This document shows, piece after piece, positions 10,633 to 34,142 of a stretch of 64,000 nt of DNA. Under the pieces are notes generated by a model, which had not been told where the DNA came from, made no database searches, and saw only the letters and a program-made list of their open reading frames with translations. A program made the position numbers and the translations under genes. This DNA is from an uncultured Gammaproteobacteria bacterium. GTDB taxonomy: Bacteria; Patescibacteriota; Microgenomatia; UBA12405. Location: assembly GCA_964605545.1 (NCBI GenBank), contig CAZSCX010000001.1, positions 16,148 to 80,147 on the forward strand, written 5' to 3'. Positions within the stretch are counted from its first letter, which is position 1; each line of letters begins with the position of its first letter.

Positions 10633-13314
10633 ATGAAAAAGTGTGCCGGATTAGCGCAAATTCCTTTGATGTTGGGATTGTTGCTAATGGCAGTGGCGAT
10701 ACCGGTAGTATCTCAATTGACAAAAAATAGTCAAGAAACAAGAAATCGAGCCCAGAGTATGCCGATAACTTATTACCGATTGATAGGTGATCAGTGTGTT
10801 GTGGCTGGAATTTTTTTAACGATTGACGAATGCCAGCAGGTAGTTAACGGGACTTGTTATGAGAATAGTAATTGTGAGAGCGGTGGAGAGGATGAGCCAA
10901 CGGCGACTCCTGATCCGATATCTAGATATTATATATGCGATTCGAAACCAGGAATGAAAAGACTTTGTAGTATTTCTTATTCTAGTGAGTCTGCTTGCCA
11001 GGCAGCTATTATAGATTCAAACACTCAAAAATGTGTTAATGATTGTAATAAAGAATGTTTAAATACATATTCTGTATGTATTGATCCGGCAATATTGGAA
11101 AAATGTCCAAATGGATCTCGAACAATGGGTTGTGAGCAATTGCTATATTCGAATGAAGTGCCAATGGGAGAGATTGCCGGAATAAATTATTTCTATGCCG
11201 ATCCGCCCAATAATTTTTTGGCTCGTTGTTTTTCTTTTGATTATGATTTTGAAGCGTCACAGGGTCGCGGAGGGGTTTTTGGAGAACTTGAGTGTTATGA
11301 GAGGTTCGGGAAACAAAATTGTTTTATCAGTAATGGTGATTGTTCAAATGTTTGTCCAAAACCAAGTACTAATACAATTACGCCAGCGCCGCCATTTGAG
11401 GCGTATAGATGTATGGAAAGTACCTGCCAGAGACAGATTTATGCAAGTATTGACGAGTGTTTGAAGGAAAATGGATTTGCCGGTTGTTTTAATGGTTGTA
11501 GTGATCAATTTTGTAGTGTCGAACAGGAATTAACCGAATATTATTATTGTGATTATAATAGTGAAAATGTAATTGAGGGAAGTTCTTTTGTTACGGGTGA
11601 GTGTGGCCATAATAGTTTTAAAAATATTTATGAATGCTATTCTCAGCATGAGAAATGTACTTTATTGAATTGTGATGATAATCCTTTGGGAATGAATGAT
11701 AATTGTCAGAAAAGTGTGATTGAGGAGGATAAAAAATTAAAATTATATTTTTGTAGTCCAAGCGGATGTCGGTGGGAAATGTTTAAAAACTGGGTAGAGT
11801 GCGGTAAATTACATGGTGTTTGTTATGATGCTTTGAATCAATGTAAATTGTATCAAAGATGTGCGGTGGCACCGCCAACTGATGATATCTATTATTTGGA
11901 TATGTCGTACACAAAATATAGTGAACAGTGTCGAAAAAGTAGTTATAAATATCTTGAAGATTGCGAACTCTATGTAAATGGTTGCGAAGAAGGAACAACA
12001 CTTGATTATTGCAAAAGACAGCTGGGAGAAAATTTTGAAAATGCAAGATGTTTTATGAATGATTCTTTGTGTGGCAGGCCAGCGCAAGAACCTTTAACAA
12101 TAGAAGTGACACCAAAATTTTCCAGTAATCCGGTGAGAGCGAAAGAAGAATTTTCTTTGGAAATTTTTGCCGATGTAATCAATGACGGTCAAACAATGCC
12201 CGATTTTTCTATTAAAGTGTGTATGACTGATAATTTAACTCGGGTATTAGACAAAGACAATACAAGTGATTGTAGTTTTACAGTAGAAGATGTCGAGGAT
12301 GAAACCCAAAAATGTTATCAGATTAGTGGTAGTTGTGTTGCAAAAAGTGAGAAGACAGTGTTGGCTAGATTATGGTTTGTGTCTGAAGCGGCCAATACAA
12401 CTGTGACTTTTTCGGTTGATTGGCCTGGATATTTTGCCGATGAATTGATTTTAAATATTGGGAATGAAGCACGAAGTTGTGATACCGGAGAGAATGGAGA
12501 TGCCAATAAAAATGGGGAGATTACAATGGATGATCATGGTATTTGGGAAAATGAATATTTTATAGGAACTTCGATGACATCTGATTTTAACTGTGATTCT
12601 AAGATTGATCTTTTGGATTTTGAAATTTGGCGATCAGGATATTTCAATCGAAATATTTCGATAACACCTTCGCCAAAACCGGTTGAATGTACAAATGGTG
12701 AATGGAAATGTTTGGATGCGACTAGAGCCCAACAATGTGTTGAGGGTTTTTGGAAAAATACAATTTGTGGTAGTGGATATAAATGTGATACTGGTGTTTG
12801 TAAAGAAGTCCAGTGTATTTTTGAAAATGAAAAATATTCAATTGGAACGAGTATTTGTACCGATACTTATTTGCCATCTGTATGTAGATCAAATGGTTTG
12901 TTTGAGGAAGGAGAATGGTGTAATAGAGGTGATTGGTGCAAGGATGGGATATGTAAAGAAATTACTTGTACCAAGGGAGATCAGGAATATAAAGTAGGTG
13001 AATCTTATTGTGGTGTTCAATCAATATTTAAATGTGGTGGTAGTGGAAGTTTTTATTCTTATGCATGTAATGGAACTTTGGTACCAGGAGAAAGATCTTG
13101 TCAGTGTGTACCTTTTGAAAATAGTCCAACGCCGACACCACCGGTAGGCACGCCGGTAACCAAATGTTATCGGAGAGATAATTATGCAGAGATGAATGTA
13201 GGGGATACTTATTGTCAGGACGATATATTTTATTTGTGTCAGAGTAACGGTATTTTGTATGAACATCAATGTATTAATGGTTGTTTAGGAGATGAATGTG
13301 CTAGTGAAATATAA
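10633..13314 (+). CDS. very Cys-rich secreted/surface protein (893 aa) with pilin-like leader and internal dockerin-like Ca-loops
   Basis: MKKCAG-LAQIPLMLGLLLMAVAIP leader and SQETRNRA motif. Carries an internal dockerin-like pair (NGDANKNGEITMDD ... DFNCDSKIDLLDFEIWR) and C-terminal C..G.W..C repeats. Confidence 0.5.
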   Translation: MKKCAGLAQIPLMLGLLLMAVAIPVVSQLTKNSQETRNRAQSMPITYYRLIGDQCVVAGIFLTIDECQQVVNGTCYENSNCESGGEDEPTATPDPISRYYICDSKPGMKRLCSISYSSESACQAAIIDSNTQKCVNDCNKECLNTYSVCIDPAILEKCPNGSRTMGCEQLLYSNEVPMGEIAGINYFYADPPNNFLARCFSFDYDFEASQGRGGVFGELECYERFGKQNCFISNGDCSNVCPKPSTNTITPAPPFEAYRCMESTCQRQIYASIDECLKENGFAGCFNGCSDQFCSVEQELTEYYYCDYNSENVIEGSSFVTGECGHNSFKNIYECYSQHEKCTLLNCDDNPLGMNDNCQKSVIEEDKKLKLYFCSPSGCRWEMFKNWVECGKLHGVCYDALNQCKLYQRCAVAPPTDDIYYLDMSYTKYSEQCRKSSYKYLEDCELYVNGCEEGTTLDYCKRQLGENFENARCFMNDSLCGRPAQEPLTIEVTPKFSSNPVRAKEEFSLEIFADVINDGQTMPDFSIKVCMTDNLTRVLDKDNTSDCSFTVEDVEDETQKCYQISGSCVAKSEKTVLARLWFVSEAANTTVTFSVDWPGYFADELILNIGNEARSCDTGENGDANKNGEITMDDHGIWENEYFIGTSMTSDFNCDSKIDLLDFEIWRSGYFNRNISITPSPKPVECTNGEWKCLDATRAQQCVEGFWKNTICGSGYKCDTGVCKEVQCIFENEKYSIGTSICTDTYLPSVCRSNGLFEEGEWCNRGDWCKDGICKEITCTKGDQEYKVGESYCGVQSIFKCGGSGSFYSYACNGTLVPGERSCQCVPFENSPTPTPPVGTPVTKCYRRDNYAEMNVGDTYCQDDIFYLCQSNGILYEHQCINGCLGDECASEI

Positions 13315-14437
13315 AAATATATTATTGATGTTGGGGTTGTTGATAGTAATGGTGGTAAGTTTAGTATTGATTAAAAGGCAACAGGATTTGAGAAGAGGAG
13401 CGGCGGGTTTAAAGACTGCTTTGTTGATTTTGAGCCCGGAGTCGGTAGGGGCAACTATTGGCGATAATTTTGATATTAATTTTTCAGTGAGTACCGAATC
13501 GACTATGTCGGCAGCAAAACTGAACATTTGTTATCCGACTAATATTGATTTGGAGAGTCAAAATACTGAATTGGCAGATTTTAATTTGTATGTAAATGCG
13601 GTGGGAGAATCAGGGGGAGAAAAGTGTGTTGAGGTGGTATTGACGGGAATTGCCAGTGACGATAAATTACCAAGTAAATTTATTAAATTATTAAAATTAA
13701 ATTTTGTAGCCAGACAGAGTGGTAGAGGGACGGTCAAAGTTGATGTCACAAAATCGCAGATGGTTGGTGTAGGGGGAGAAATTGCTATTGATTCAGGAGT
13801 AAATGAGGTAGTGGTGAGTGTAAATGATGAAAATGGTCAGGGAGGTGGCGGAGAAACGCCGACTTTAGAACCAACACCTTTTATGAAATATTGGAAGTGT
13901 GATCCGGTAACAATGGTATGTGAAGAAATTAATCCTGATGAGTGTTTGTTGATTGGAGAGGAGTGTTTGGTAAATGAGAATTGTCCGACTGATTACACTT
14001 GTCTTGAGATGACAATTACACCGACATCGCCAATAGTAACAACGACACCGATAGTTGAAATGAAATATTGGATCTGTGATGAAGCCACTAAAATATGTGA
14101 GGAAGTAAGTGAAACGGTGTGTAATTTGGATTCAAATTGCAAGATTAGTATTGATTGTCCAGATGGATACACTTGTTCTGTAATTACGATTACCAAAACT
14201 CCAGTACCAGTTGGATGTCAGGATTGTAAATCTTTAGATCCTGAATATAGTGGCAATGGGAGAAAAGGCGGAGATTATAATTGTGATGCGGTTGTTAATG
14301 GAACTGATTTTGTAATTTGGCGGAGAGAAGCTTTAGATAAAATTATGAGGTATGATTGTTGGCAGGCTGATGGTAATGATGACGATAAGGTATCATTAAT
14401 TGATTATTCTTTGTGGAGGGAATGGTATTTAAAGTAG
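13292..14437 (+). CDS. surface protein: N-anchor, cohesin-like domain, 2x eight-Cys module, C-terminal dockerin-like domain
   Basis: Leader ...LIKRQQDLRRGAAG and a cohesin-like segment (IKLLKLNFVARQSGRGTVKVDV). Two YWxCDxxTxxCEE...CPDGYTC modules. The C-terminus is YNCDAVVNGTDFVIWRREAL...DGNDDDKVSLIDYSLWREWYLK. Confidence 0.5.
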   Translation: MNVLVKYKNILLMLGLLIVMVVSLVLIKRQQDLRRGAAGLKTALLILSPESVGATIGDNFDINFSVSTESTMSAAKLNICYPTNIDLESQNTELADFNLYVNAVGESGGEKCVEVVLTGIASDDKLPSKFIKLLKLNFVARQSGRGTVKVDVTKSQMVGVGGEIAIDSGVNEVVVSVNDENGQGGGGETPTLEPTPFMKYWKCDPVTMVCEEINPDECLLIGEECLVNENCPTDYTCLEMTITPTSPIVTTTPIVEMKYWICDEATKICEEVSETVCNLDSNCKISIDCPDGYTCSVITITKTPVPVGCQDCKSLDPEYSGNGRKGGDYNCDAVVNGTDFVIWRREALDKIMRYDCWQADGNDDDKVSLIDYSLWREWYLK

Positions 14438-14477: not shown

Positions 14478-16304
14478 ATGATGTTTGATAAAAAGAATTT
14501 GGCTAATGTGGTAACAGCAGTGTTTTTGTTTACAGCGTTGATGGTGACTGGTTTGGCAGTAAAGAGAACTTTGGATATGAGAAATAGGGCAGCGACGACA
14601 GGGACAAAATTTTATATTGATCCGGCTAGTGTGGAATTAAAAGTGGGAGAGACAAAAGAATTTGCTGTTTATGTCGATACTTCTGATACCGGAGAAAAAG
14701 TAGCTTTTGTGGAAGGGCAGTTGTGTTATGGTCCAAAAATTAAAATTGCCAGTCAGTCGGCTGATGTTTATAAACCACAGGAAGAATATTTTAATGATGT
14801 TGACCTAATTAAGGGCAAGAGAGCGGAAGATATCGTCGATGGTACAACGGCTGGAGTGAAGTGTTTAAATTTTGCCTTAAGTTCGGCTAGTGTTACATCA
14901 GATAATTTAAAAAGCGGAGTAGTAAAAACTTTAATCGTTAGATTTACTGGGGTGGAAACAGGTAGCGAAAAAGTTAGTTTTACCCAAGATCCATTAAAGA
15001 CTTATTATAATAATAATTTAAGTGATGAGCCTGGAATTATTGCTGCTTATACCGATTCAGAAATTACGGTGGTGACACCAAGCGAGGGAAGTGAATCATT
15101 GATTACTCTTGATGGTTCAAAATTGGCAACTAAAGTTGGTGAAACCGGAGAAGTAATAGTAAAACTTGATACTTCGTCATCATCTAGAGAAGTCGATGGA
15201 TTTCAGGCGACTGTTTGTTATGGAAAGGAATATAAAATTGGAAATACCTTGGCAGATGTAACAGTGGCCAATAGTACCAGCAAGGGTTTATCGAGCATTT
15301 TCAGACCAATTACAGTTATTCCGAAGACTGATGGTAGTGGGACATGTGCAACAATAGCAATGAGAGCTTCGGCTGAAGATGGAGTTGAATTGCCTTCTGG
15401 TTCTTTTGATGTTTTGAGAATAAAACTGGAAGCTGTTATAGCTGGCAAAGGGACGGTTTATTTAGATAAAGAGCAATGTGAAGTGAGTGGACCAAGTGTG
15501 CCCGGCAAGGGAAATGCGATTACTCACGATATTGGATCGGCTGTAGCTTATGAAGTGCTTTCTGATGGAGGAAAATTTTGGCAATGTAATGAAACAACAA
15601 GAATTTGTGAGGAAATAAGTGAAACTACATGTAATTTGATTGATAACTGTATCCGTAGTGGAGATTGTCCTGTAGGTTATACTTGTCCGAGTACAACCGA
15701 TACACCGAAACCAACACCAACAGATACACCGGAGGAAACTGGTTTGATATTTAATTTTAAAATGACTTTTCAAGGTTTAATGTCAAATGCCTCGGAATGT
15801 GGTGAGAAATGGAATAATTTAAAAATTAAATTAGTTGACAGTAAAGGTAAAGAAAGTCCTTTGATGGATGTAGCTATTTCACCGGAAGATGCTTTGTCTA
15901 TGGCTGTAGAACCGATGGTTTTTAAAGGAAAAGTATATTTGGGTGAATATGTGCCGGAAGGAGATGTTTTTGCTTTGATGCGGGGGCCAATTCATATTAC
16001 CGATAAATATGGTATGGATGCACAAAACGGTGAATACAATATTTATTTGGGTAAACTTAATGGAATGACGGAAAATTTGGAAACGACAAAATTATTTGAT
16101 TTTACAAAATATGCTTTGAGAGGCGGTGATGTCGATGCCAATGATATGCTCAATGGGGCAGATTATACAAAGATTAAAGATAGTTTAAGTTGTACGGAAA
16201 GTACTTGTTTAAATTCTGATATTAATGGTGATTGTGTAGTTAATGCAGCCGATACTACATTTTTTATAGATAATATTAAAATACGCAATGGCAAATTATA
16301 CTAA
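14478..16304 (+). CDS. surface protein: N-anchor, two cohesin-like domains, eight-Cys module, C-terminal dockerin
   Basis: Leader ...VKRTLDMRNRAATTG and cohesin-like strands (KTLIVRFTGVETGSEKVSF). C-terminal dockerin pair GDVDANDMLNGADYTKIK / DINGDCVVNAADTTFFI. Confidence 0.5.
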   Translation: MMFDKKNLANVVTAVFLFTALMVTGLAVKRTLDMRNRAATTGTKFYIDPASVELKVGETKEFAVYVDTSDTGEKVAFVEGQLCYGPKIKIASQSADVYKPQEEYFNDVDLIKGKRAEDIVDGTTAGVKCLNFALSSASVTSDNLKSGVVKTLIVRFTGVETGSEKVSFTQDPLKTYYNNNLSDEPGIIAAYTDSEITVVTPSEGSESLITLDGSKLATKVGETGEVIVKLDTSSSSREVDGFQATVCYGKEYKIGNTLADVTVANSTSKGLSSIFRPITVIPKTDGSGTCATIAMRASAEDGVELPSGSFDVLRIKLEAVIAGKGTVYLDKEQCEVSGPSVPGKGNAITHDIGSAVAYEVLSDGGKFWQCNETTRICEEISETTCNLIDNCIRSGDCPVGYTCPSTTDTPKPTPTDTPEETGLIFNFKMTFQGLMSNASECGEKWNNLKIKLVDSKGKESPLMDVAISPEDALSMAVEPMVFKGKVYLGEYVPEGDVFALMRGPIHITDKYGMDAQNGEYNIYLGKLNGMTENLETTKLFDFTKYALRGGDVDANDMLNGADYTKIKDSLSCTESTCLNSDINGDCVVNAADTTFFIDNIKIRNGKLY

Positions 16305-16737
16305 GGCTTTTACTTTGGTGGAGTTGTTGGTAGCGATGACAATTATTATGGTACTGACAATTGTGGCGGTGGTAAATTATGGTAGTGTCCAAAAAAATGC
16401 CAGAGATTCAAAAAGAAAGGCTGATTTAGAAAAAGTGAGGGTGGCGTTGGAAATGTATAAACAGGATCATGATGGATGTTATCCGCCAAATACCAATACT
16501 TTGGATGACGAGGGTTATTTAGATATTGTGCCAAGAACTGATCCGAAAGGACAGCCGTATTGTTATATATTTGCTGGATCTGCTTGTGGGTCACCAGCAG
16601 TAGGAAATACGTCTTATTCTTTGTATACAAGTATGGAAAATGAGAAAAATGAATCTTCATCTTTTGATGCTTTTACTTGTATTGGAGATGGTGGTCTTAC
16701 ATTGGAAAATACAAATTATGGAGTTAGTAATCCTTAA
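16288..16737 (+). CDS. type IV pilin / T2SS pseudopilin (PulG/GspG-like)
   Basis: Class III signal: basic leader then A/G-FTLVELLVAMTIIMVL. Followed by a GspG-like SVQKNARDSKRKADLEKVRVALEMY. Confidence 0.75.
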   Translation: MANYTKAFTLVELLVAMTIIMVLTIVAVVNYGSVQKNARDSKRKADLEKVRVALEMYKQDHDGCYPPNTNTLDDEGYLDIVPRTDPKGQPYCYIFAGSACGSPAVGNTSYSLYTSMENEKNESSSFDAFTCIGDGGLTLENTNYGVSNP

Positions 16738-16740: not shown

Positions 16741-17352
16741 ATGAAAAAAAATAAAGGCTTGGCTCAAATTCCATTGATAATTGGTTTGATGGTAGTGGCG
16801 GTGGCTATTCCAATGATCAAAAATATATCAATGAAAAAAGAAAAGACTAAAAATATTGTTTCTGAGGAAAAGGTCGTCGAAAAAAAGATGAAAAAAGTTG
16901 AGGCAAAAATGTTTTTGGAACCAAAGGATATAAATTTAAAAGTTGGAGAAAAAAAGAAAATTAAGATAATAGTTGATACAAGTGAGGGAAAAAGGAAGGT
17001 TGATATTGCCAGGGCAGTGTTGTGTTGGAGTGGGGGATTGGCAATAGGTGATATTGAGAAAGATATTGTTTTAGATAAATCTTTTTTTGATGGTTTTGTT
17101 TTTAAAAATCCTGTTAAGGTGGAAGGGTTCGATTGTATTGATATAGTTGCTAATTCACAAAAGAGAACTAATGAATTGAATTCCGGTAAAATGACTTTGG
17201 CTGAAGTTGTATTTGTGGCTACAGAAAAAATGGAAGGAGGGGTGTTTACTTTTGATTCTGTTTTAAGTGAAGTTTCTGGTCCTGCTAATGAAAATGGCGA
17301 TTATGGGATTCAATTAGGGGAATTTGAAAAATTTATTTATCAGGTTAAATAG
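16741..17352 (+). CDS. pilin-like-leader protein with single cohesin-like domain
   Basis: MKKNKG-LAQIPLIIGLMVVAVAIP leader and a cohesin-like body (MTLAEVVFVATEKMEGGVFTFD). Confidence 0.45.
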   Translation: MKKNKGLAQIPLIIGLMVVAVAIPMIKNISMKKEKTKNIVSEEKVVEKKMKKVEAKMFLEPKDINLKVGEKKKIKIIVDTSEGKRKVDIARAVLCWSGGLAIGDIEKDIVLDKSFFDGFVFKNPVKVEGFDCIDIVANSQKRTNELNSGKMTLAEVVFVATEKMEGGVFTFDSVLSEVSGPANENGDYGIQLGEFEKFIYQVK

Positions 17353-17355: not shown

Positions 17356-19848
17356 GTGAAGAAGTGTCTATTTCTTTTTTTGTTTTTAGGTTTATTTTTG
17401 GCACCGTCAGTATTGGCGGAAGAGAATTACGATGGTTATTTAATTAAGTATAAGAGTGGAAAAATTGAGAAAAGTGCTACTAAACCGATGAATATAATGA
17501 GCGAGGGAGAGGAAAGTGATATTAAGTTTATTCAACCGAATTATATTTATGAAACGTGTGAAATTAGCGAGAACGATAAATATTGGTATTTAAAAAATAC
17601 CGGCCAAATATTTCAAGAAAAAAGTGGGGTTGGTATAAAAGGGAGGTCAGGGGTGGATTTAGGAAAAGAGGCAGCCGATGAACTAACAAGAAATGAGAGT
17701 AAACAAGACATAATTGTGGCCGTCTTGGATTTGGGGTTGGATTACAATGACACGATATTTACTGGGAAATTATGGAATGGAGAGAATTGTAAAAATGAGT
17801 TGGGGGAAACGATGGGAGGATGTAAAAATGGTTATGATTTTGTAAATAACGATAAAGATCCTTTGCCAAATAGTAGTGAAGATCATGGTACTCATGTGGC
17901 GGGGATAGTGGCATCAATTGCACCGAATGCGAAATTAATGATATTGAGAGTAGGGGCTGGGGGAACGATGCCGGCAGAAGCTATAAGCCGGGCAATTGAT
18001 TTTGCCAAAGTCAATGGGGCGAAGGTTATTAATGCTAGTTTTGCCTCTTCAAAAGGATCTGATGGAAAATATCCAGATATTTTTGATTTATTGATGTACG
18101 ATTCAATTAAAAATTTTGATGGACTTTTCATCAATGCGGCAGGAAATGAAAATACCAATATCGATACAGGAGTGACCGGCGGGAGACCGTTTCCGGCATC
18201 GTTAAAATATGGAATGGGAGGTTTTAACGAGCCATTGAAAAATATTTTTGTAGTTTCGGCAACGAATTATTATGATGATATTACTTATTTTTCCAATTTT
18301 GGTAAAGATACAGTAGATATCGCAGCAATGGGAGCAGGTATTTATGGAGTGAGTAATAACGGTGGTAGGGTTTATTATCAGGGGACTTCGATGGCGACAC
18401 CGATGGTTTCCGGAGTGGCGGCTTATTTGTTAGGCTTGAGACCAAGTATGAGTGTGGCCGAATTAATTTCTTTGATTTCCGGAAGCGGAATTAAGGCTGA
18501 GGGAGTGAAGGGGATGGTGTTAAGTGGAAGGAGATTAAATTTGGAAACGGCAGTGAGAAAAATGAAAAATATGGAATGGGATAGGGAAAGCAAGGGAAGT
18601 GAAGGGGTAAAAAGATTGAGTGACGGAAAAATAGGAGGAGGAATTTTTATGGAAATAAACAGTAAATATTTACCGGAATTTTTGTATCTCTATTTATCAG
18701 ATATGTCCAATTCGTTGCGATTGACAAGATGCAGTGAAATGAAATGCGAGAGTGTTAGTGAGACAAAGGAATTGTTAAAAGGAGGATTAAATCCAATTGC
18801 GTTTTCTTTGACAGCTGATGATCGGCCAATAATTTTGTCAGGGGGAACTTTTAGTTTATTAAAAATTTGTAAAGATAAAGATTGTATTGAATACAAAGAT
18901 GTGGGAAGTGGTAATTATGGAGTTAATGTATCAATTAATGGAGAAATAGATGTCGATAGCAAGGGTAGAATAGTCTGGACTTTTTATACGGCGGATAGAA
19001 ACTGGGTGATTTTGAATAGATGTGATGATGCGCAATGCACTAGTTACCAATCTTGGAAGACGGCTTCAATGATATCAAATGATTCAGAAGCGGCGTTGGA
19101 TTTAAAAATAGATAAAAGTGATCGAATATTTTTGGCATACAACGAACAAATTTCGGTTAAAAAATTAATTAAGTGTGATGATAATTTAAGCGATAGTTGT
19201 GATTTGTTGGGCACAGATAATCAATCAATTTATGGCTATGGAAATGCTTTGGCGATAGATAAAGATGACAATCTTTATTGGCTTTTACCGGCTAGTGGTG
19301 GTCTTAAGTTAAGTAGGTGTTTAAATGGTGATTGCCAGATAATAAATTCATTGATATCGGTGTCGGTTGATAGTGGGTCTTTGTTTATGAGTAAATTAAA
19401 AATGGTAATGAATGTTGGCGGAGTACCAATGATAACGATAGGTGATGATGGTGATAAATATGGAGTAAAAATAATTAAATGTAAAGACAAAAATTGTAGT
19501 CAGAGTGAGACGGTGATAATTGACAATCAATATGGTGTAGGGGAAAGTATGAGAATAAAAAGTGGGGCGGGAGGAATGGGTGGAGTGGCTTATTTGGATA
19601 CATTGTCGGCTGATTTGAAATATCATAGTTTTCTGAATTATTTTCCAGTGAAGTGTAGTGAGAATTATTTTGGTAAAAATCAAGGTGATTATAATTGCGA
19701 TAATTTAATTACTGGGGGAGATTATATTGTTTGGAGGAGAGAATTTTTGGATAAAAAAATTGGAGAAAAATTTGAGTCAGATGGAGATGGAGATGGTAGA
19801 TCTAGTCTGAGTGATTATTCGTTATGGAGAGAAGAGTATTTGAAATAA
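17356..19848 (+). CDS. subtilisin-like serine peptidase (S8) with C-x4-C repeat region and C-terminal dockerin-like domain; GTG start
   Basis: Catalytic triad contexts VAVLDLGLD, HGTHVAGIVAS and GTSMATPMVSG. Six [KR]C..x..C[ST/Q] repeats. C-terminus GDYNCDNLITGGDYIVWRREFLDK...DGDGDGRSSLSDYSLWREEYLK. Confidence 0.8.
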   Translation: MKKCLFLFLFLGLFLAPSVLAEENYDGYLIKYKSGKIEKSATKPMNIMSEGEESDIKFIQPNYIYETCEISENDKYWYLKNTGQIFQEKSGVGIKGRSGVDLGKEAADELTRNESKQDIIVAVLDLGLDYNDTIFTGKLWNGENCKNELGETMGGCKNGYDFVNNDKDPLPNSSEDHGTHVAGIVASIAPNAKLMILRVGAGGTMPAEAISRAIDFAKVNGAKVINASFASSKGSDGKYPDIFDLLMYDSIKNFDGLFINAAGNENTNIDTGVTGGRPFPASLKYGMGGFNEPLKNIFVVSATNYYDDITYFSNFGKDTVDIAAMGAGIYGVSNNGGRVYYQGTSMATPMVSGVAAYLLGLRPSMSVAELISLISGSGIKAEGVKGMVLSGRRLNLETAVRKMKNMEWDRESKGSEGVKRLSDGKIGGGIFMEINSKYLPEFLYLYLSDMSNSLRLTRCSEMKCESVSETKELLKGGLNPIAFSLTADDRPIILSGGTFSLLKICKDKDCIEYKDVGSGNYGVNVSINGEIDVDSKGRIVWTFYTADRNWVILNRCDDAQCTSYQSWKTASMISNDSEAALDLKIDKSDRIFLAYNEQISVKKLIKCDDNLSDSCDLLGTDNQSIYGYGNALAIDKDDNLYWLLPASGGLKLSRCLNGDCQIINSLISVSVDSGSLFMSKLKMVMNVGGVPMITIGDDGDKYGVKIIKCKDKNCSQSETVIIDNQYGVGESMRIKSGAGGMGGVAYLDTLSADLKYHSFLNYFPVKCSENYFGKNQGDYNCDNLITGGDYIVWRREFLDKKIGEKFESDGDGDGRSSLSDYSLWREEYLK

Positions 19849-26783: not shown

Positions 26784-26810
26784 GCCATAAGTGTGTCATA
26801 ATTAAATGAA

Positions 26811-28298
26811 ATGAGGAAGTTATTGTTTTTATTATGTTTAGGAATTTTTTTGGGTACAGGTGGTGTGGTGTTGGCAGAAACATGTAGTCCGACAGAGGTG
26901 TCTTTGAATAGGGAAAAAACTGGAGGAATTTTTTTGAATATTGGTAAAGATAATAAACCTGTGGTTCTTTATACGGAATATAAGACGAGTATGGTTACAG
27001 AATCGAGTTTTTTAAAATGTACGACTGACGATTGTAGTGATTTTGGGGAAGTTGATTTTTCTTCGATATTTCCTTTAGAAAATGGGGGAGTAGGTGTGTT
27101 TAGCGATGGAAGCGTGGCTTTTATGATGGTGAGTGAGGGTGAAAACAATAATATGTATTTTGTAAAATGTAGCGATAATAAATGTACTAGTTATACAAAA
27201 ACTTTATTTAAAAGTGATTTTGTTAAAGATAGTAATTTGAATATTTTTCGTAATTCTCCAGCCCAAGTTTTTATTGACAAGAACGATTTGCCTAATTTTT
27301 ATTTTCGGCAAAGTTTTACCGATGGAACTAGAATGGATCAATATTTGGATATATATCTAGTAAGATGTAGTAAAAAGGATTGTAGTGAATACAAAGTAAA
27401 TAAGATAGATAAAGTAATAGCTGAGGCAGCTATTGACGGTTTTTGGGGGCAAACTTTTGTGGTAGATAATGATGACAAAACTGTTTTGGAGTATTTGATG
27501 TTGGAATACGAAACAGGAGATTTGCAATTGGTTTTAAATTATGATGGAACAAAAACGATAATTGATGAAGCCGAGAATAGGTGCTACAACAGAAGTGAAT
27601 TGATGTTGCCGTCGATGTATTTAGGAAACGATGGTAATCCTGTTTTAAATTATATGAAAAGAGTTGGGAGTGCCGATAGTTGCACAACCAAATACATTAC
27701 GGTTTTTTGTAAAAATAAAACTTGTACAGAAAAAAATGTAATAGATACGGTTAAGGGTTTTAAAATGAGAAAAGGAAGGGAGGGTTATCCGGTTTATGAA
27801 TATTTGGATGGAGGAGACAGGGGGGTTATAGTTTGTAAAAATGCCGATTGTTCGGAAAAAACACAAAAGGCAATTTTGACCGGATGTAATCCTAATTTAA
27901 ATGTTACGTGCCCAGGTTTTGTTGATTTTAAATTGGACAATGAATATAAACCGGTTTGGTTGATAAATAGGGTGATTTCTAGTAAGAATATTTTGTCAAT
28001 TTATCGATGTTGTACGGTCGATTGTGGGACAACATTTGAACCTCTTAATTGGTATGGGACATGTAAAAACGTTGTGGATGAAACAAGAGGGTGTACTAAG
28101 TGTGAAAGTGATAATTATCAAGGAATTAATCGTTGGGGAGGGGATTATAATTGTAGTGGGGATTTAACAGCCGGGGATTATATTGTTTGGCGAGATGAAT
28201 TTTTTAAAAAGGGAACGGAGAGGGAGGCGGATGGGGATTGTGATGGTAAAACGAGTCTTTCCGATTATTCAAAATGGAGAGAGGAGTATCTTAAATAA
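26811..28298 (+). CDS. secreted C-x4-C repeat protein with C-terminal dockerin-like domain (paralog B, tandem duplicate)
   Basis: Colinear with 25287..26783 and shares perfect 52-nt and 66-nt nucleotide stretches with it. Confidence 0.5.
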   Translation: MRKLLFLLCLGIFLGTGGVVLAETCSPTEVSLNREKTGGIFLNIGKDNKPVVLYTEYKTSMVTESSFLKCTTDDCSDFGEVDFSSIFPLENGGVGVFSDGSVAFMMVSEGENNNMYFVKCSDNKCTSYTKTLFKSDFVKDSNLNIFRNSPAQVFIDKNDLPNFYFRQSFTDGTRMDQYLDIYLVRCSKKDCSEYKVNKIDKVIAEAAIDGFWGQTFVVDNDDKTVLEYLMLEYETGDLQLVLNYDGTKTIIDEAENRCYNRSELMLPSMYLGNDGNPVLNYMKRVGSADSCTTKYITVFCKNKTCTEKNVIDTVKGFKMRKGREGYPVYEYLDGGDRGVIVCKNADCSEKTQKAILTGCNPNLNVTCPGFVDFKLDNEYKPVWLINRVISSKNILSIYRCCTVDCGTTFEPLNWYGTCKNVVDETRGCTKCESDNYQGINRWGGDYNCSGDLTAGDYIVWRDEFFKKGTEREADGDCDGKTSLSDYSKWREEYLK

Positions 28299-28341: not shown

Positions 28342-30822
28342 ATGAGTTTTAATGTACGAAGATGTGGATTGATACAATTACCTATTTTGATTGGAATTTT
28401 AATAATCTCAGTAGCAATTCCTGCCTTGACGGTTTTGGTACAAGAGAATCAAGATGTTAGAAATCGAGCGGCGAATGGGGATAAAATAATTTGTGAAAGA
28501 TGTAGTAAAAATAGTAGTTGTGAATGGGTAGTGTATGAAGTTGATGCTTCTGTGGGGTGTGATGTTTTATATGAATCACAGATGACTATTATTAGTAGGA
28601 CGGCAAAATGCGAATGTGGAAAAGTTGCTAATGCAACTGATTCTAGATGTGGAACAGTGAGTACCGGTGGGTGTACAGGGACAAAATGTAATGCCGCTGG
28701 CGATACATGTTGTATTAATTCTTTTAATGGTGGAACAATACCATATTGTGAAGCTGGTTTTGTCTGTGATATGAATTCAAGTTCAAGTTTATTTGGAAAG
28801 TGTATTAAACCTTGGAGTAGTACTCAACAATGTAATAGGTGTAGTAGTAATAGAAATTGTTATCGAGCCTATTTTGAAGCTCCTTATCCGGGAGATTGTG
28901 CTACCATAGAACCTCTTTCTACTTCTCTTATTAAATATGTTTATGAGGCTGGTTGTTGTGCTGGTGGGGGAGATACTACTCCTCCGACTCAAAAATGGTA
29001 TTACTGTGATGGGACACAGAGTACTTGTAAAGTAGATACCAATACTTATGCTGATTCAGCCAGTTGTTCGGCGGCTCATGGAGGTAGAACTTGTTATTAT
29101 TATGATGAAGAGGCTGGATGTAATAGTTTATGTGCAGCGGCGGATTATAAATATTATTGTGATACAACATGTAAAAAGACAACTGAAAAGTTTGCTGGTG
29201 CGGATTGTTCGGCAGTTTTGGGAAAAGCTTGTTATTCGACCAGTAATTGTAATGGAGTATGTCCAACTTCTGGAACTTCTTGTTCAGGGAGTGAAGGTAC
29301 AGTTCCAAGTGGATCTTGGGGGTGTCAAAGTTTGAGTACGAGAGCCTATTGTTTAAATGGTGTGTGGTCAAGCTCGAATAGTGAATATTGTCAGTACGAT
29401 TGTAAAGATGGTAGATGTAATTCAGCTCCGCCTACAACATGTAATGATTATCAGGGAAATCCAATTTCGGCTGGTTTTTGGGGTTGTAAGACAGCAACTA
29501 CAAGAGCGTGGTGTAATTCAGGTGTTTGGATAAATGATTATAATTGTGCTACGAATGGTGGTACTTGTGTGAATGGTGAGTGTCAAACTGTGGCAGCATG
29601 TAGTAAAGTTGGCGATACTTGTTGTTTAGGTGGTGCTACTGGGAAATTTTGTAATAATAGCTTAGTCTGTGGTAGCGATAGCAAATGTGCAAGTTCTTGT
29701 GGCATAGAAAATTACCCGTGTTGCTATAATCCGAATGGTGCTGGTACTTGTACAAACAGTTTCGGCTCTCCTTATTTAAAGTGTGTGGCTGACAAGTGTG
29801 TTAAAGATCCAGAACGATGTTTTTTGAATTTTGGTACTGCTACTACTGTGATATATGAGGATACTTTTTGCTATCGAGAGAGTGGAAAACCAGAGACGAT
29901 AAGAAAGTGTGAATATGGTGGTAGTACTACTTTTGTGACTAATTGTAGTTTTAGTTGTATGGCTGGTAGAAATATAGGAGAGCCTCTTGTTGCGGAATGT
30001 TGTGGTGGCTTGAATGAGACTTGTTGCTCTGGCACTGAGTGTTCTCCTGGTTTGAGTTGTATTAGTGGGGTTTGTAAGAATCCGACAACAAATGTTTGTG
30101 GAAATAGACCAGATGGGACAGCGAGAGTGCCTGGAGAATCATGGTGTGTAGATAATAAATTATATGAATGTATTAACCCAACAGGTACTTTGATAAATCT
30201 TAAAACTACTACTTGTATCGATGGTTGTATAAAACTTACCAATACTACAGCAAAATGTAATGTGGTGAAGAAATATTGGCAACATGATGCAGTGGCGAAT
30301 GGCTATAATTGTTCGACCGATAGTCGTTGGATGTGTACAGAAACTACTACAGTAACTAAGTTTGCCGATAAAGCTAGTTGTGAAAATGATGTTGGTTGTG
30401 ATGTTACTTTTTATAGATATACATGTAATCCTGTTACCGGTAATTGGAGTTGTGTAAATACACCGCAAACCGGCCAGCCTTCTTATTCGGAAGTAACTTA
30501 TGGATCTGCGGCAGCGGCGGAACAAAAATGTATTACTGATGATCCAAGTGATTTGTGCAAGAAAACATCTACTTGTTCAGTATGTTCAGAGGAAAAGAAT
30601 GGTTATGTTGGACCAGATAAGAGCGGAGGAGACTATAATTGTGATGGAGTTTTGACAACAGGTGATTATATTGTTTGGCGTGGAGAGTATTTGGATTATG
30701 TTTTAAAACGGGTTAACAAAAATAGATATGTGGCCAATGGTAATTGTAAAAATAATCCTGATTTGTATTATTTAACTGGAACTAGAGATTATTCTTTATG
30801 GAGAGAAAATTATTTAAAATAA
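28342..30822 (+). CDS. hyper-cysteine-rich surface protein (826 aa, ~100 Cys) with pilin-like leader and variant C-terminal dockerin
   Basis: MSFNVRRCG-LIQLPILIGILIISVAIP leader and NQDVRNRAANGD. Repeated GSWGCQ..C.NGVW / GFWGCK..C.SGVW modules. C-terminus GDYNCDGVLTTGDYIVWRGEYLD...NGNCKNNPDLYYLTGTRDYSLWRENYLK. Confidence 0.5.
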   Translation: MSFNVRRCGLIQLPILIGILIISVAIPALTVLVQENQDVRNRAANGDKIICERCSKNSSCEWVVYEVDASVGCDVLYESQMTIISRTAKCECGKVANATDSRCGTVSTGGCTGTKCNAAGDTCCINSFNGGTIPYCEAGFVCDMNSSSSLFGKCIKPWSSTQQCNRCSSNRNCYRAYFEAPYPGDCATIEPLSTSLIKYVYEAGCCAGGGDTTPPTQKWYYCDGTQSTCKVDTNTYADSASCSAAHGGRTCYYYDEEAGCNSLCAAADYKYYCDTTCKKTTEKFAGADCSAVLGKACYSTSNCNGVCPTSGTSCSGSEGTVPSGSWGCQSLSTRAYCLNGVWSSSNSEYCQYDCKDGRCNSAPPTTCNDYQGNPISAGFWGCKTATTRAWCNSGVWINDYNCATNGGTCVNGECQTVAACSKVGDTCCLGGATGKFCNNSLVCGSDSKCASSCGIENYPCCYNPNGAGTCTNSFGSPYLKCVADKCVKDPERCFLNFGTATTVIYEDTFCYRESGKPETIRKCEYGGSTTFVTNCSFSCMAGRNIGEPLVAECCGGLNETCCSGTECSPGLSCISGVCKNPTTNVCGNRPDGTARVPGESWCVDNKLYECINPTGTLINLKTTTCIDGCIKLTNTTAKCNVVKKYWQHDAVANGYNCSTDSRWMCTETTTVTKFADKASCENDVGCDVTFYRYTCNPVTGNWSCVNTPQTGQPSYSEVTYGSAAAAEQKCITDDPSDLCKKTSTCSVCSEEKNGYVGPDKSGGDYNCDGVLTTGDYIVWRGEYLDYVLKRVNKNRYVANGNCKNNPDLYYLTGTRDYSLWRENYLK

Positions 30823-30825: not shown

Positions 30826-32160
30826 ATGACAAATAATAAAAATAAACTTTTTGTTTTATTAATAATATTGGCAGTATCTATTTTTGGGTCGGTAATGCTG
30901 ACAAGACAAACACAAGAGCTAAGAAGGAAGGCAGCTGATGGTTATATTCAATCTTTTGAACCAGTTTCAATAACTGGTATGAAAGTGGGAGGGACAGCGT
31001 CGGTAACTGTTTTAGCAGAAACACCTTTAGGTTTTAAATCGGCGACTATTCTGATTTGTTACCCTGATTATTTGAAGGAACTAACAAAGGATGATATTAA
31101 ATTATCGGATTATTTTACAATTGATTTACCGCCGATTCGAAGAGTTGATTTGGGTTATAGTGGAAAAATTTGTTCGGTAATAGAGGCGATGGTGAGTATA
31201 GATGATGCAACTAAAACTGGAGCGCCAGCAGGAATATCTCAGGTGGCGAAGCTTACTTTTACCGGAAATAAGGTTGGAACTGGTGGTAAGATAGAAGCAA
31301 TTATTGGTCCTGTTTCCGGTAGAGAATATGGTAAAACGACCGATAAGAATTTTAGATCATTGGTTTCCGGTGATTTTACAGACGGACAAGATAAAGTCTT
31401 TAGCACTGTTGGGTCTGTTGATATTAGTGTTGAAGGTGATAAGAAATATGTTAGAGGAGATTGTGATTTTAGTACTGGTAAATATGAATGTACAGAGAGT
31501 GCTAATGGGACTATGGATTTGGCTACTTGTGAGACAGATACAAATTGTTATGTTAAAGGTGATGATTATGTTTTGAAGTTTAGAGTTATTTTTCCAGGTG
31601 TTTGGCCGCAAAATAAATTTATTGATGGTTATGAAAAAGTTAGTTTATTGGTTGAATCAGCAGTTGGTACGACTTGGTTGGGAGATGTAACAATGACAAA
31701 GGTGGCAAAAGAAGAGACAACCGATATAAAAGACGGTGATATTCAATATCAGGTGTATCAGGCGTCGGTGCCATTGAAAGGTTTTAATTACAACAAGGAT
31801 TTAGCGGTAACTATAAAAGGAGTAAAGCATTTAGGAATGAGGTTTGGCGAAGATAATCAAAAAGGTTGCTATAGATCGATGATAGGAAAAATTGGTTCGA
31901 CTAATGCTTTAACAAAAGATGAGACTACAACACCTTTGTTTAACTTCATTAAAACTCCATTACCGGGCGGTGATGTTGATAATAATGATATTGTGAATGC
32001 GGCCGATTATTCTCAGGTTAAGTCAAAAATGTTGACTTGTGATAATGCCAAGTGTGGGGAGGATATTAATGGTGATGGAATTATAAATAGTACTGATGCC
32101 AGTTATATTAATTTAACAGTCTCTGACAAATGTGGAGACTGGTGGACTACAGGAGAATAA
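30826..32160 (+). CDS. surface protein with cohesin-like domain and C-terminal dockerin (DVDNND type)
   Basis: Leader ...LTRQTQELRRKAADG and cohesin-like AKLTFTGNKVGTGGKIEAII. C-terminus GGDVDNNDIVNAADYSQVKSK / DINGDGIINSTDASYIN. Confidence 0.5.
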   Translation: MTNNKNKLFVLLIILAVSIFGSVMLTRQTQELRRKAADGYIQSFEPVSITGMKVGGTASVTVLAETPLGFKSATILICYPDYLKELTKDDIKLSDYFTIDLPPIRRVDLGYSGKICSVIEAMVSIDDATKTGAPAGISQVAKLTFTGNKVGTGGKIEAIIGPVSGREYGKTTDKNFRSLVSGDFTDGQDKVFSTVGSVDISVEGDKKYVRGDCDFSTGKYECTESANGTMDLATCETDTNCYVKGDDYVLKFRVIFPGVWPQNKFIDGYEKVSLLVESAVGTTWLGDVTMTKVAKEETTDIKDGDIQYQVYQASVPLKGFNYNKDLAVTIKGVKHLGMRFGEDNQKGCYRSMIGKIGSTNALTKDETTTPLFNFIKTPLPGGDVDNNDIVNAADYSQVKSKMLTCDNAKCGEDINGDGIINSTDASYINLTVSDKCGDWWTTGE

Positions 32161-32776
32161 TATGAAAAATATTAGTAAAAATACTTTTTACTGGATAATA
32201 CCAGTTTTTTGTCTTGTTATAATTTTTCAAGCGGTGGTTTTAGTAAATAGTACTTTAAACCAAAAAACTACGATGACGGCCAGTAAATCGGCAGATGTCA
32301 ACGATAAAGAGAGTCAGGTGAAATTAGTGCCGGAAGTTGATTTGGGTTTGGTGGCCATGGAAACTGAATGGAAAATAGGTAAGAAATATAAGGTAACTTT
32401 TGAGGCAACTTCGAAACAGACCAGATTAATAGATGCAATGGATTTATATGTCAAATATGATAAAGATGCTTTTACGGTAAGTAATTTACTTTCCGGAGAT
32501 GGTTTACCAAAACCAACTTCCAGCAAAATTAGCACCAAAACCGGTTTGTTGGTAGCTAATATTTATATTCCGGTGAACGAGAATTATAAAATGGAAAAGG
32601 CGGTAAAAAAGACACTTTTGACTTTTGAAGTTACACCAAAGAAGTTAGGGGATTTTACTTTTGAAATTGATACTGGAAAAGTAGTAAAAGAATCTGTTAC
32701 TATGATAGTAGAATCAAAAACTGCTAAGGTTTTACCTTTTGCAGCAGAGATGTTAGCGGTTAAAGTAATTAAATAG
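32132..32776 (+). CDS. membrane-anchored cohesin-like domain protein
   Basis: Single TM helix (FYWIIPVFCLVIIFQAVVLV) followed by a beta-sandwich-like body (KKTLLTFEVTPKKLGDFTFEID). Confidence 0.4.
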   Translation: METGGLQENNMKNISKNTFYWIIPVFCLVIIFQAVVLVNSTLNQKTTMTASKSADVNDKESQVKLVPEVDLGLVAMETEWKIGKKYKVTFEATSKQTRLIDAMDLYVKYDKDAFTVSNLLSGDGLPKPTSSKISTKTGLLVANIYIPVNENYKMEKAVKKTLLTFEVTPKKLGDFTFEIDTGKVVKESVTMIVESKTAKVLPFAAEMLAVKVIK

Positions 32777-32781
32777 AATTA

Positions 32782-33474
32782 ATGAAAAATGTAATCAAAA
32801 TATTGCCCATTTTGATTTTGTTGATGGGTTTGTCGGTTAAGCCTGTAAGTGCAGCGGCGAGATTGACGTTGGATCCTGCGACAAAGAATCTGAAGGTTGG
32901 GGAATCAATGGAAATAGCCGTTAATGCTTATTCAGAAACAAAAACAGTAGCTGGTATTGATGCAGTAATAACTTTTGATTCTGCTAAGCTTGAAGCATCA
33001 AGTGTATCACTTGCCTATACTGGGTTGTCGTTTAAACAAACTGTATCAGGTAACAAGATTACAATTGCTTTATATAAAGAAAATTATACTGAATTGGGTG
33101 CGACGGCGATAAATGGCAAGGTAGCAACGATAGTTTTCAAAGCAAAAGAAACCGGTACAGCAACGGCTAGATTTACTTGTACAACTTCGACAATGACGGA
33201 TTCCAATATTTTGAATATGGATGGGGGAACTGTAACTGATATTATTTCTTGTGTGGACAATGGAACCGGTACTTATGAAATAAGTGCGTCTTCGTCAGCG
33301 ACAGCAACAAGTACACCGACAACAGCTGCAAGTAGTAATACAAATACACCAACTCCGATACAGACGACTACAGCGGCACAATTGCCAAAGACGGGTAGTA
33401 CCGAGACAACTGTATTCTTGACTATATTTGGGTTATTAGGTGTAGCTGGAGCGTTTATTTTGAGAGCTTTATGA
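32782..33474 (+). CDS. cohesin-like domain protein with LPXTG sortase cell-wall anchor (putative anchoring scaffoldin)
   Basis: Signal peptide and a cohesin-like body (GKVATIVFKAKETGTATARF...TMTDSNILNMDGGTVTDIISC). A Thr/Ser/Pro linker leads to LPKTG, a hydrophobic stretch and RAL at the C-terminus. Confidence 0.65.
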   Translation: MKNVIKILPILILLMGLSVKPVSAAARLTLDPATKNLKVGESMEIAVNAYSETKTVAGIDAVITFDSAKLEASSVSLAYTGLSFKQTVSGNKITIALYKENYTELGATAINGKVATIVFKAKETGTATARFTCTTSTMTDSNILNMDGGTVTDIISCVDNGTGTYEISASSSATATSTPTTAASSNTNTPTPIQTTTAAQLPKTGSTETTVFLTIFGLLGVAGAFILRAL

Positions 33475-34142
33475 GAGGTGCAGCGAAAGTAAAAACAATT
33501 TTGGTAATTATTATATTGTTATTGGTTGGGGTTTTAGGAGTAGTTGGGGTGGGAGCGGTTAGGACTTATATGTCTGGCGCAGCTGCAGATGCTGGACCAA
33601 AAACAGTCAGTGCAATTATAAGTAACGATGGTAGTTCGGCGACAATTAGTTTTTCGACTGACAAAAAGGTTATTCCTACAATTTTGTACGGGACTTCACC
33701 GACGACGATGTATTTGAGCAAGGTAGCGGCTGAGGAATCAACAGAATTCAATATAAATTTGTCTCCATTGAAAGCTAACACTCAGTATTATTATGCGATC
33801 AAAATTGCCGATACTACTTATGATAATGCGGGTATCCCTTATTCTTTTTCGACAACTGCCAAGAGTAGTAGCAAAACAACAGAAGCAGCGGTGACATCAA
33901 CACCTATACCGACGGTAGCGACTTCTAGTGCCAGTACCAAGACAGAATGTAATAAGGAGACTGATTATAATAATGATGGTGTGATTAACACTATTGACTA
34001 TGTACTTTGTAGCAGTGGCAAAGTAACCGGAGCACCGGCAGCGAGTGCCAGTTCGGCTCCAAGTTGTAGTGGAACTGATTACAATAATGACGGAACAATA
34101 AATGCCGTTGATGAACTGTTGTGTAGACAAAAAGCGAATTAA
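33471..34142 (+). CDS. membrane-anchored FN3-like domain protein with two C-terminal dockerin-like repeats
   Basis: N-terminal TM helix and an FN3-like segment (TISFSTDKK...TQYYYAIKI). Repeats ETDYNNDGVINTIDYVLC and TDYNNDGTINAVDELLC. Its ATGA overlaps the previous stop. Confidence 0.5.
   Translation: MRGAAKVKTILVIIILLLVGVLGVVGVGAVRTYMSGAAADAGPKTVSAIISNDGSSATISFSTDKKVIPTILYGTSPTTMYLSKVAAEESTEFNINLSPLKANTQYYYAIKIADTTYDNAGIPYSFSTTAKSSSKTTEAAVTSTPIPTVATSSASTKTECNKETDYNNDGVINTIDYVLCSSGKVTGAPAASASSAPSCSGTDYNNDGTINAVDELLCRQKAN

Follow-up and report, generated by a model that had tools for sequence, protein, structure and literature searches.

A probable non-cellulosomal cohesin–dockerin system for the surface display of secreted proteins in a Microgenomates bacterium

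The window analysed here, a 64-kb stretch of contig CAZSCX010000001.1, carries on its plus strand 17 adjacent co-directional open reading frames (ORFs; 10633-34142, named g1 to g17), whose products of 149-893 amino acids (aa) probably form a non-cellulosomal cohesin–dockerin system displaying secreted proteins on the cell surface of a Shapirobacteria-like Microgenomates bacterium belonging to the Candidate Phyla Radiation (CPR). An initial annotation of this DNA had proposed a modular cohesin/dockerin system with a sortase-type anchor, a pilin and an S8 protease, a proposal that finds support in sequence profiles, in a structure model and in synteny. The ORF coordinates bear out the 17 consecutive plus-strand genes; their tight packing likewise stands, with the spacing between neighbours corrected from 0-40 nucleotides (nt) or overlaps to -29 to +43 nt. 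Each of the 17 products has one hydrophobic segment at its N-terminus, of signal or anchor type, and g16 has a second one after its LPKTG motif. New here are a conserved core locus between rseP and yqeY, its expansion to 17 genes, and strain-variable cargo carried on constant dockerin tails.

Eleven products (g2, g3, g6, g7, g8, g10-g14 and g17) end, as initially annotated, in a dockerin-like tail of about 55 residues with two D-x-N-x-D-G-x4-6-D loops, and the same module lies internally in g1 (residues 621-672), giving 12 dockerin proteins in total. The tails fall into class A (GGDYNCDGxLTGGDYIVWRxEFL...DGNCDGKxSLxDYSxWREEYLK; n=9: g1, g2, g6, g7, g8 and g10-g13), class B (GGDVDxND..NxADY...DINGDxxxNxxD; g3 and g14) and class C (DYNNDGxINxxD twice; g17). 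One or two loops conforming to D-x-[DN]-x-[DNS]-x2-[LIVMT]-[DNST]-x2-D occur in 12 of 12 tails, the calcium-ligand D/N residues are kept at positions 1, 3, 5 and 12 of both loops, and in the alignment of 11 tails (A1) D3, D14 and D45 are invariant, with D34 and D38 nearly so. When a profile of this alignment was searched against all PDB sequences, the top 23 matches were all dockerin-bearing chains, the best of them a solved type-I dockerin (3ul4_B, E=4.4e-8). Pfam Dockerin_1 (PF00404) is passed in the window only by g14 (27.3 bits) and g17 (27.0 bits); g2 (18.8 bits), g3 and g8 score below its threshold and the other tails give no match. Among dockerin proteins at the same position in relatives, 8 of 10 pass it, with 30-76 bits. 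The dockerin-coding DNA is itself a dispersed repeat of eight copies at 67-78% nt identity. Taken together, the PDB profile matches, the scores of the relatives and the dispersed DNA repeat identify the tails as homologs of dockerins. NCBIfam assigned no family to ten cluster proteins on which it was run.

Cohesins were verified as eight modules on seven proteins (g2, g3 twice, g5, g7, g14, g15 and g16), with at most two per protein in the window (g3). The initial count of at least eight cohesin-bearing proteins was slightly overstated, because the modules of g1 and g9 have no significant match: g1 485-615 and the C-terminal domain of g9 were tried as cohesins, reached an hhalign probability of at most 1.5% and were not counted. 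The co-occurrence of a cohesin and a dockerin in the same protein holds for g2, g3, g7 and g14. Above the 24.1-bit threshold of Pfam Cohesin (PF00963) stand g16 (39.9 bits) and g7 (25.2 bits), whose cohesins match each other by phmmer (E=1.9e-17), and a g16-family profile of 18 sequences matches solved scaffoldin cohesins (2vn5_A, 1g1k_A, 4ums_A; 2vo5-type) at E~4e-4. The Pfam check proposed at the outset thus succeeded for g14 and g17 with the dockerin model and for g7 and g16 with the cohesin model, the remaining proteins being sub-threshold or unmatched. For g15, a sub-threshold Pfam Cohesin score (16.6 bits) is joined by a match to the g16-family hidden Markov model (HMM) at 1.3e-7. The other five modules, in g2, g3 (twice), g5 and g14 (alignment A2), form a second class of divergent cohesins with two invariant Cys. 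Profile–profile comparison with hhalign links this class 2 to the g16 family (90% probability, E=1.7e-6), and g16 in turn matches the class-2 HMM at 5.5e-9. The one class-2 representative that was modelled, g14, had cohesins as its leading Foldseek matches (probability 1.0), in agreement with the beta-sandwich initially proposed and with the nine-stranded jelly-roll of the cohesin type.

Dockerin and cohesin HMMs found no match in any other ORF of the window, which shows that the clustering is not due to chance, and the same modules recur at one locus in relatives. Homologs of g16 include a protein named by NCBI as 'cohesin domain-containing protein [Candidatus Shapirobacteria bacterium]', and related loci are present in that Shapirobacteria metagenome-assembled genome, in a 'Patescibacteria group bacterium' and on 37 metagenome contigs, some of them 0.84-1.1 Mb long; the 37 come from a metagenome scan with a g15-family profile and the other two from a scan of genome contigs with a narrow g16 alignment. 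Wherever the flanks reach far enough, the loci share one gene order: after rpsB-tsf-frr-rseP come one or two genes for Cys-rich proteins ending in a dockerin, a g14-like gene in some loci, then g15-, g16- and g17-like genes, and finally (rpsU)-yqeY-ybeY-dnaX. The core gene set, found in the rseP-yqeY interval of about 30 related loci, encodes a Cys-rich dockerin protein (usually the only cargo of this kind in a related locus), one cohesin held in the membrane, another with LPXTG, and an FN3-dockerin protein, with an adaptor as an optional member. A g15-like gene is present in every related locus, the loci having been found with the g15 profile; the g16-like gene follows it in 34 of 38 cases, and a g17-like gene is kept beside the latter. 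In eight metagenome loci with both flanking genes, the rseP-yqeY interval holds 4-5 genes in 3.7-9.6 kb, compared with 18 genes in 25 kb in the window. The same core order at the same locus across relatives argues for vertical conservation, and g13 to g17 are, as judged by synteny, a vertically conserved envelope feature of the lineage. By the same comparison, the 17-gene version is a lineage-specific expansion, the largest among the loci compared; the cluster is, in other words, not absent from related genomes, as a 4-5 gene core occupies the same place.

The expanded cluster is shared with a sister strain (GCA_964559645.1 and SRR27710297; loci L012 and L013), but with one g11/g12 gene (507 aa) there instead of the tandem pair at 25287-28298. 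Protein identity between the two strains reaches 100% for g4, g5 and g7, 99% for g1, 98% for g6 and 96% for rseP, and falls to 77% for g2, 69-72% for g11/g12, 67% for g13 and 53% for g10. In g10 and g13, stretches of 14-52% identity are interspersed with others at 98-100%: cargo blocks range from 22 to 80% in g10 and form a mosaic from 14% to 100% in g13. The dockerin tails of both proteins and the N-terminus of g10 are 94-100% identical to those of the sister strain, and g13 is 84% identical over its first 50 residues, where its N-terminal signal lies. Constant tails joined to replaced cargo are the pattern expected if the tails must fit a constant partner, and the alignments suggest that the cargo of g10 and g13 has been replaced in a cassette-like manner by recombination or diversifying selection.

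This constancy bears directly on the possibility that the modules, while homologous to cohesins and dockerins, do not pair, the tails serving as calcium-binding stabilising or wall-binding domains, the sandwiches as Ig-like spacers, and the clustering arising from tandem duplication. Databases contain many dockerin-like modules of non-cellulosomal proteins for which no partner is known; many of the tails studied here fall under the Pfam threshold, duplication has clearly propagated the dockerin DNA module, and the interaction is read from sequence. Such a reading is nevertheless unlikely, given that cohesin and dockerin genes stay together at one locus in about 30 diverged loci in which most other sequence is at 30-40% identity, that minimal loci have cohesin genes (g15, g16) and dockerin genes (g17 and the gene for the Cys-rich cargo) in equal number, two of each, and that the tails are maintained while the adjoining cargo is exchanged. 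In addition, class-A tails bear a D[YF]xxW[RK] helix motif in both repeats, a symmetry that seems typical of cohesin-binding dockerins.

Several points also weigh against a cohesin–dockerin display system as such. The majority of class-A tails miss the Pfam Dockerin_1 threshold. The class-2 cohesin profile found no cohesin match among PDB sequences, so that the link of this class to cohesins rests on hhalign and the structure model, and the g14 model is of moderate quality (mean predicted local distance difference test score, pLDDT, 63.7; 70-89 in the cohesin module). No sortase gene is present in the 64-kb window, the N-terminal signal of nine or ten proteins may hold them in the membrane independently of the dockerin, and we purely infer which dockerin classes match which cohesins. 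On this last point, the two cohesin and two dockerin genes of minimal loci suggest one-to-one pairing, and class-A dockerins (nine) and class-2 cohesins (five) have expanded together in the window.

If the cluster does encode a cohesin–dockerin display system, its assembly can be envisaged as a hierarchy of sockets, adaptors and plugs. The wall-anchored socket would be g16, linked covalently to the wall by a sortase, with g15 as a membrane-held anchoring socket and g5 as an additional membrane socket. The adaptors would be g3 and g14, which combine cohesins with a class-B dockerin and could plug into an anchor while offering more sockets, and the extenders or branch points would be g2 and g7, which combine a cohesin with a class-A dockerin. 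Calcium-dependent binding to the sockets would then bring in the dockerin-tagged cargo: the S8 protease, propellers of the FG-GAP (one) and lectin-like (two) kinds, knot-like Cys-rich proteins and the FN3 protein. The outcome would be an exchangeable, strain-variable modular coat serving attachment to a putative host cell or surface and perhaps proteolytic attack. The initial functional proposal, a lattice for adhesion or host interaction whose members could polymerise head to tail, is plausible as a hypothesis. Adhesion- and recognition-type domains (FG-GAP and propellers here, Big_2 and TSP1 in relatives, VWA and fn3 among proteins with the shared N-terminal signal) together with a single protease favours attachment or host interaction over polysaccharide degradation. 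As for evolution, an ancestral 4-5 gene core (g13 to g17) probably expanded by duplication and shuffling of the dockerin-coding 3' module.

For uncultivated CPR bacteria other than Saccharibacteria, in which type IV pili are implicated, little has been established about attachment to hosts or surfaces, and the locus offers a concrete, testable alternative for Microgenomates. Here a putative wall-anchored cohesin-LPXTG socket is kept beside essential translation and replication genes, and near-identical strains differ sharply in the plug-tagged cargo but share constant plugs. The small divergent cohesin–dockerin pairs are possible orthogonal connectors for protein engineering.

In g16 (32782-33474, 230 aa), the sortase-type cohesin protein, a signal peptide leads into a single cohesin, which a Ser/Thr linker joins to LPKTG, with a transmembrane segment and a basic tail behind it. 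The C-terminus of g16, LPKTGSTETTVFLTIFGLLGVAGAFILRAL, scores 29.6 bits with Gram_pos_anchor, as expected for the one LPKTG protein of the initial annotation, and the LPKTG, transmembrane segment and K/R tail are kept in 7 homologs. In g15 (32132-32776, 204-214 aa) and g5 (16741-17352, 203 aa) the only anchor is an N-terminal membrane one: a transmembrane segment precedes the cohesin-like domain in the former, and a GLAQIP-type N-terminus precedes one class-2 cohesin (54-203) in the latter. The conserved adaptor g14 (30826-32160, 444 aa) is built of a class-2 cohesin (39-204), a beta domain and a class-B dockerin. Its paralog g3 (14478-16304, 608 aa) has two class-2 cohesins, at 42-198 and at 206-364, ahead of its beta domain and class-B dockerin, and is by its architecture an adaptor-scaffoldin. 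In g2 (13292-14437, 381 aa), local HMMs resolve a class-2 cohesin (41-175) and a C-terminal class-A dockerin, with two small Cys modules between them; in g7 (19869-21605, 578 aa), Cys-rich repeats precede a g16-type cohesin (364-493) and a class-A dockerin.

Among the cargo, g6 (17356-19848, 830 aa) is the subtilase of the initial annotation (Peptidase_S8, E=7e-35), with the triad D125/H177/S345 intact in the motifs VAVLD125, H177GTH and GTS345MATP. The protease domain follows an ordinary signal peptide and precedes six propeller-like C-x3-5-C repeats and a class-A dockerin. The same [KR]C-x3-5-C hairpin, found about six times at residues ~450-760 of g6 (18700-19640), is common to g11 and g12, and the repeat shared by the C-terminal half of g6, g11 and g12 has homologs only in very close relatives (5 matches in 5.8 billion sequences). 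In g11 (25287-26783, 498 aa; likely start at the internal ATG at 25308), a signal peptide is followed by a beta-propeller-like domain, in which KC-x3-DC is repeated, and then by a class-A dockerin; g12 (26811-28298, 495 aa) is the tandem paralog of g11 at 71% aa identity, also with a class-A dockerin. The g11 model is of low confidence (pLDDT 52) and its fold resembles six- and seven-bladed lectin and sialidase propellers; it is used here for no more than the low-confidence prediction that the domain of g11, and of g12, is a beta-propeller. Homologs are few for g11 (only 5) and g14 (only 3), and the alignments available for structure prediction are correspondingly shallow. A propeller of the FG-GAP/VCBS type (FG-GAP_3 E=2.8e-27; FG-GAP E=1.7e-11) precedes the class-A dockerin of g8 (21633-23198, 521 aa).

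The Cys-rich proteins g1, g7, g10 and g13 contain 6-10.5% Cys and no Pfam cargo domain. In g1 (10633-13314, 893 aa, 8.2% Cys), a long-form N-terminal signal (GLAQIP...QETRNRA) is followed by Cys-rich repeats on both sides of the internal dockerin; g10 (24016-25311, 431 aa, 8.8% Cys) consists of cargo and a class-A dockerin; and g13 (28342-30822, 826 aa, 10.5% Cys), the counterpart of the conserved Cys-rich cargo gene in the core locus of relatives, has a long-form signal, knottin-like Cys-rich modules and a class-A dockerin. With neither a cohesin nor a dockerin verified in it, g9 (23242-24006, 254 aa) runs from a long-form signal through a Cys-rich stretch and a Pro/Thr linker to a beta-rich C-terminal domain. 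Finally, g17 (33471-34142, 223 aa) has an N-terminal transmembrane anchor, an FN3-like domain (Pur_ac_phosph_N, 23 bits, sub-threshold), a Ser/Thr linker and the class-C dockerin.

Nine of the cluster proteins (g1, g2, g3, g7, g8, g9, g10, g13 and g14) share an N-terminal signal with the product of the neighbouring glycoside hydrolase family 39 (GH39)-like gene. The signal spans about 40 residues and consists of a basic stretch, an optional G[LAI][AVI]Q[IL]P, a Pro-containing hydrophobic helix and L[VT]QxxQ[DE]xR[NR][RKQ]A; examples are encoded at 10633-10760 (g1) and 28342-28480 (g13) on the plus strand, from 10607 to ~10490 (GH39) on the minus strand, and in related loci at L004:6288-6500 and L010:5522-5750. 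A long form opening with G-[LA]-x-Q-[IL]-P is found in g1, g9 and g13, and a short form without the G-xxQIP part in g2, g3, g7, g8, g10, g14 and the GH39-like protein; g5 has the long-form opening and helix without the Q[DE]xR part. Searching 1.84 billion proteins with a 38-position profile made from the window sequences alone gave 324 representative proteins with E<=1e-3; almost all of the matches fall at residues 1-50, and the consensus is strongly conserved. Among 116 signal carriers of at least 250 aa, which have a median Cys content of 6.6%, a dockerin is present in 66, at the extreme C-terminus in 62. Neither Pfam nor NCBIfam matched the N-terminal stretch on the proteins scanned, and a literature search for the signal strings found no papers. 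The stretch has the appearance of a sorting signal not described before and linked to the dockerin system; it may be lineage-specific, with a prepilin-like or dibasic processing site. In relatives, small Cys-rich proteins (~110-230 aa, up to 8% Cys) carry the same signal without a dockerin, and their genes lie between tsf and frr or beside rseP, just 5' of the core (L008:3342-4028, L037:5593-6267, L034:29-715 and L044:5173-6457).

A more far-reaching and tentative proposal, which may well prove incorrect, is that of a lineage-specific Microgenomates secretion-and-display pathway in which the signal (consensus KKGLAQIPLMIGLLLMAVAIPVATKLVQQNQDTRNRAA) and the C-terminal dockerin are two handles of hypervariable Cys-rich adhesins. 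The signal would direct export and processing, perhaps by prepilin-like or dibasic cleavage, the dockerin would attach the protein to a cohesin that is anchored in the wall and whose gene has a fixed, housekeeping-like location, and a rapid exchange of cargo cassettes between these constant handles would set host range in these presumed episymbionts.

The long form of the signal also invites an interpretation built on a type IV pilus or pseudopilus, in which it would be a class-III (prepilin-like) signal, proteins such as g1, g5, g9 and g13 would be cleaved by prepilin peptidase and mounted together with g4, and cohesin–dockerin contacts would decorate the fibre. The cluster does contain a bona fide type IV pilin gene, as initially annotated: g4 (16288-16737, 149 aa) overlaps g3 by 17 nt, and its product has a prepilin cleavage/methylation motif followed by a hydrophobic helix (KA|FTLVELLVAM; N_methyl 28.8 bits, threshold 21.2; T2SSG 19 bits). 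Strong conservation of the motif G|[LAI][AVI]Q[IL]P extends from g1, g5, g9 and g13 to hundreds of representative proteins, and Gram-positive modular pilins with bulky C-terminal modules exist. However, the long-form N-termini give no Pfam N_methyl match and have Pro in place of the conserved Glu5 of type IV pilins, the short form lacks the G-xxQIP part altogether, the minimal core of relatives has no pilin gene, and no pilus machinery genes lie within the 64-kb window. A pilus-based system is for these reasons distinctly improbable.

Cohesin–dockerin pairing outside cellulosomes is established for toxins and glycosidases of Clostridium perfringens and for Archaeoglobus fulgidus. The C. perfringens complexes (NanJ, NagH, NagJ) resemble the cohesin–dockerin display system proposed here in that the pairing assembles secreted virulence or host-interaction proteins and is not used for cellulose; unlike in the cluster, where cargo is not made up of carbohydrate-active enzymes (CAZymes) and the anchors are encoded within it, the modules there sit on large glycoside hydrolases (GHs), with no single operon holding wall and membrane anchors. 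A. fulgidus is likewise a non-cellulolytic organism with cohesin and dockerin, which can share one polypeptide, but it has a few isolated archaeal genes and no conserved multi-gene locus, LPXTG anchor or cargo expansion. The amylosome of Ruminococcus bromii, a further established non-cellulose re-use of the pair, shares small scaffoldins and cell-surface anchoring with the cluster and differs in its GH13 amylase cargo (PMC4611034), the S8 protease being the only dockerin-tagged enzyme here. Structures from these non-cellulosomal systems appear among the structure matches.

Similarity to the clostridial and ruminococcal cellulosomes (C. thermocellum CipA/OlpB/SdbA; R. flavefaciens ScaA/ScaB and sortase-anchored ScaE) extends to the two-loop dockerins, the cohesin beta-sandwich, the hierarchy of anchor, adaptor and cargo, and single proteins bearing both cohesin and dockerin. 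Unlike them, the cluster has no dockerin-borne glycoside hydrolase, no scaffold carbohydrate-binding module (CBM) and no more than two cohesins per scaffold, its dockerins are of divergent classes with Cys in the calcium loops and a W-R/K helix motif, and its bearer is a CPR bacterium of ~1 Mb.

Within the CPR, expressed cohesin- and dockerin-domain proteins of Ca. Shapirobacterales BG1-G2 have been read as cellulosome components by Bell et al. 2022, who also cite a Roizmanbacterium 'cellulosome' (PMC9123182), and an essential dockerin-domain protein is listed in a Saccharibacterium by Wang et al. 2023 (PMC10633639). The initial remark that no characterisation of such an arrangement in CPR-like genomes was known was accordingly too strong. 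BG1-G2 shares its CPR order with the named relatives of the locus and supplies the sole expression evidence, and its proteins probably represent the same conserved core; that report lists the domains only and does not analyse locus structure, anchors, cargo types, expansion or strain variability (PMC9123182). A literature search found no paper describing the locus, its anchors, cargo or variability.

A true cellulosome-like complex, in which cohesin scaffolds organise glycoside hydrolases on plant or microbial glycans, could claim in its favour the published interpretation of these Shapirobacterales and, reportedly, Roizmanbacterium proteins (PMC9123182), the low-confidence lectin- or sialidase-like propeller models of g11 and g12, and the GH39-like gene adjoining the cluster. 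This gene (9342-10607, minus strand) encodes a glycosidase of 421 aa (Glyco_hydro_39, E=2.9e-25) with the N-terminal signal of the lineage type, but it lies on the opposite strand and its product has no dockerin HMM match, so that it is probably a neighbour outside the complex. It is found between rseP and g1 here and in the sister strain (L012, L013), whereas minimal-core relatives have no such gene between rseP and yqeY; its arrival may have accompanied the cluster expansion. In accordance with the initial remark that no dockerin is attached to a glycoside hydrolase, none of the 12 dockerin proteins in the window has a Pfam match to a CAZyme or CBM, and no glycosidase or CBM was found by Pfam on ten dockerin proteins from related loci, whose cargo is Big_2 (Ig-like), TSP1 (thrombospondin-type) or without Pfam match. 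Among 88 signal carriers scanned, one GH39 is the sole GH, VWA and fn3 domains also being present, and most related loci offer just one Cys-rich protein as cargo. Lacking dockerin-borne CAZymes and CBMs, the cluster fails as a cellulosome on the defining features, and a polysaccharide-degrading complex is highly improbable. The system works like a cellulosome scaffold without being a cellulosome, a reading that corrects the published view of such proteins as evidence of cellulose degradation by CPR bacteria.

The cluster is flanked on its 5' side by topA, a TrwB/VirD4-like ATPase gene, rpsB, tsf, frr and rseP, and on its 3' side by yqeY, ybeY, dnaX, recR, cysS, ssb, ctpA-like and htrA-like genes and dnaB. 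Housekeeping genes on both sides place it on the chromosome and not on a mobile element, and a phage or mobile-island origin is ruled out, the core lying within conserved housekeeping synteny in all relatives. Promoter and terminator consensus scans gave site counts no higher than in shuffled sequence and so provide no operon boundaries; no terminator-like site was found between genes within 10633-34142.

Further features of the window concern its flanks and overall composition. The TrwB/VirD4-like gene (2712-4865, minus strand, 5' of rpsB) encodes a type IV secretion coupling ATPase that is kept in the same synteny block of relatives (L008:1-586, L021:2530-4689 and L029:1994-4159). The 1.4 kb gap between it and rpsB lacks any large ORF and has, at 5418-6260, three small ones of 64-84 aa, whose paired CxxC motifs give them a zinc-ribbon-like character. 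The GC content of the window is ~35%. GC skew is unusually strong and positive, at +0.2 to +0.49, across 1-56 kb, where nearly all genes lie on the plus strand, and drops beyond ~56 kb to about +0.04 to +0.13, with pta, gyrA and gyrB on the minus strand. A XerC/D-type recombinase gene (57420-58349) adjoins this change in skew, which may mark a replication landmark.

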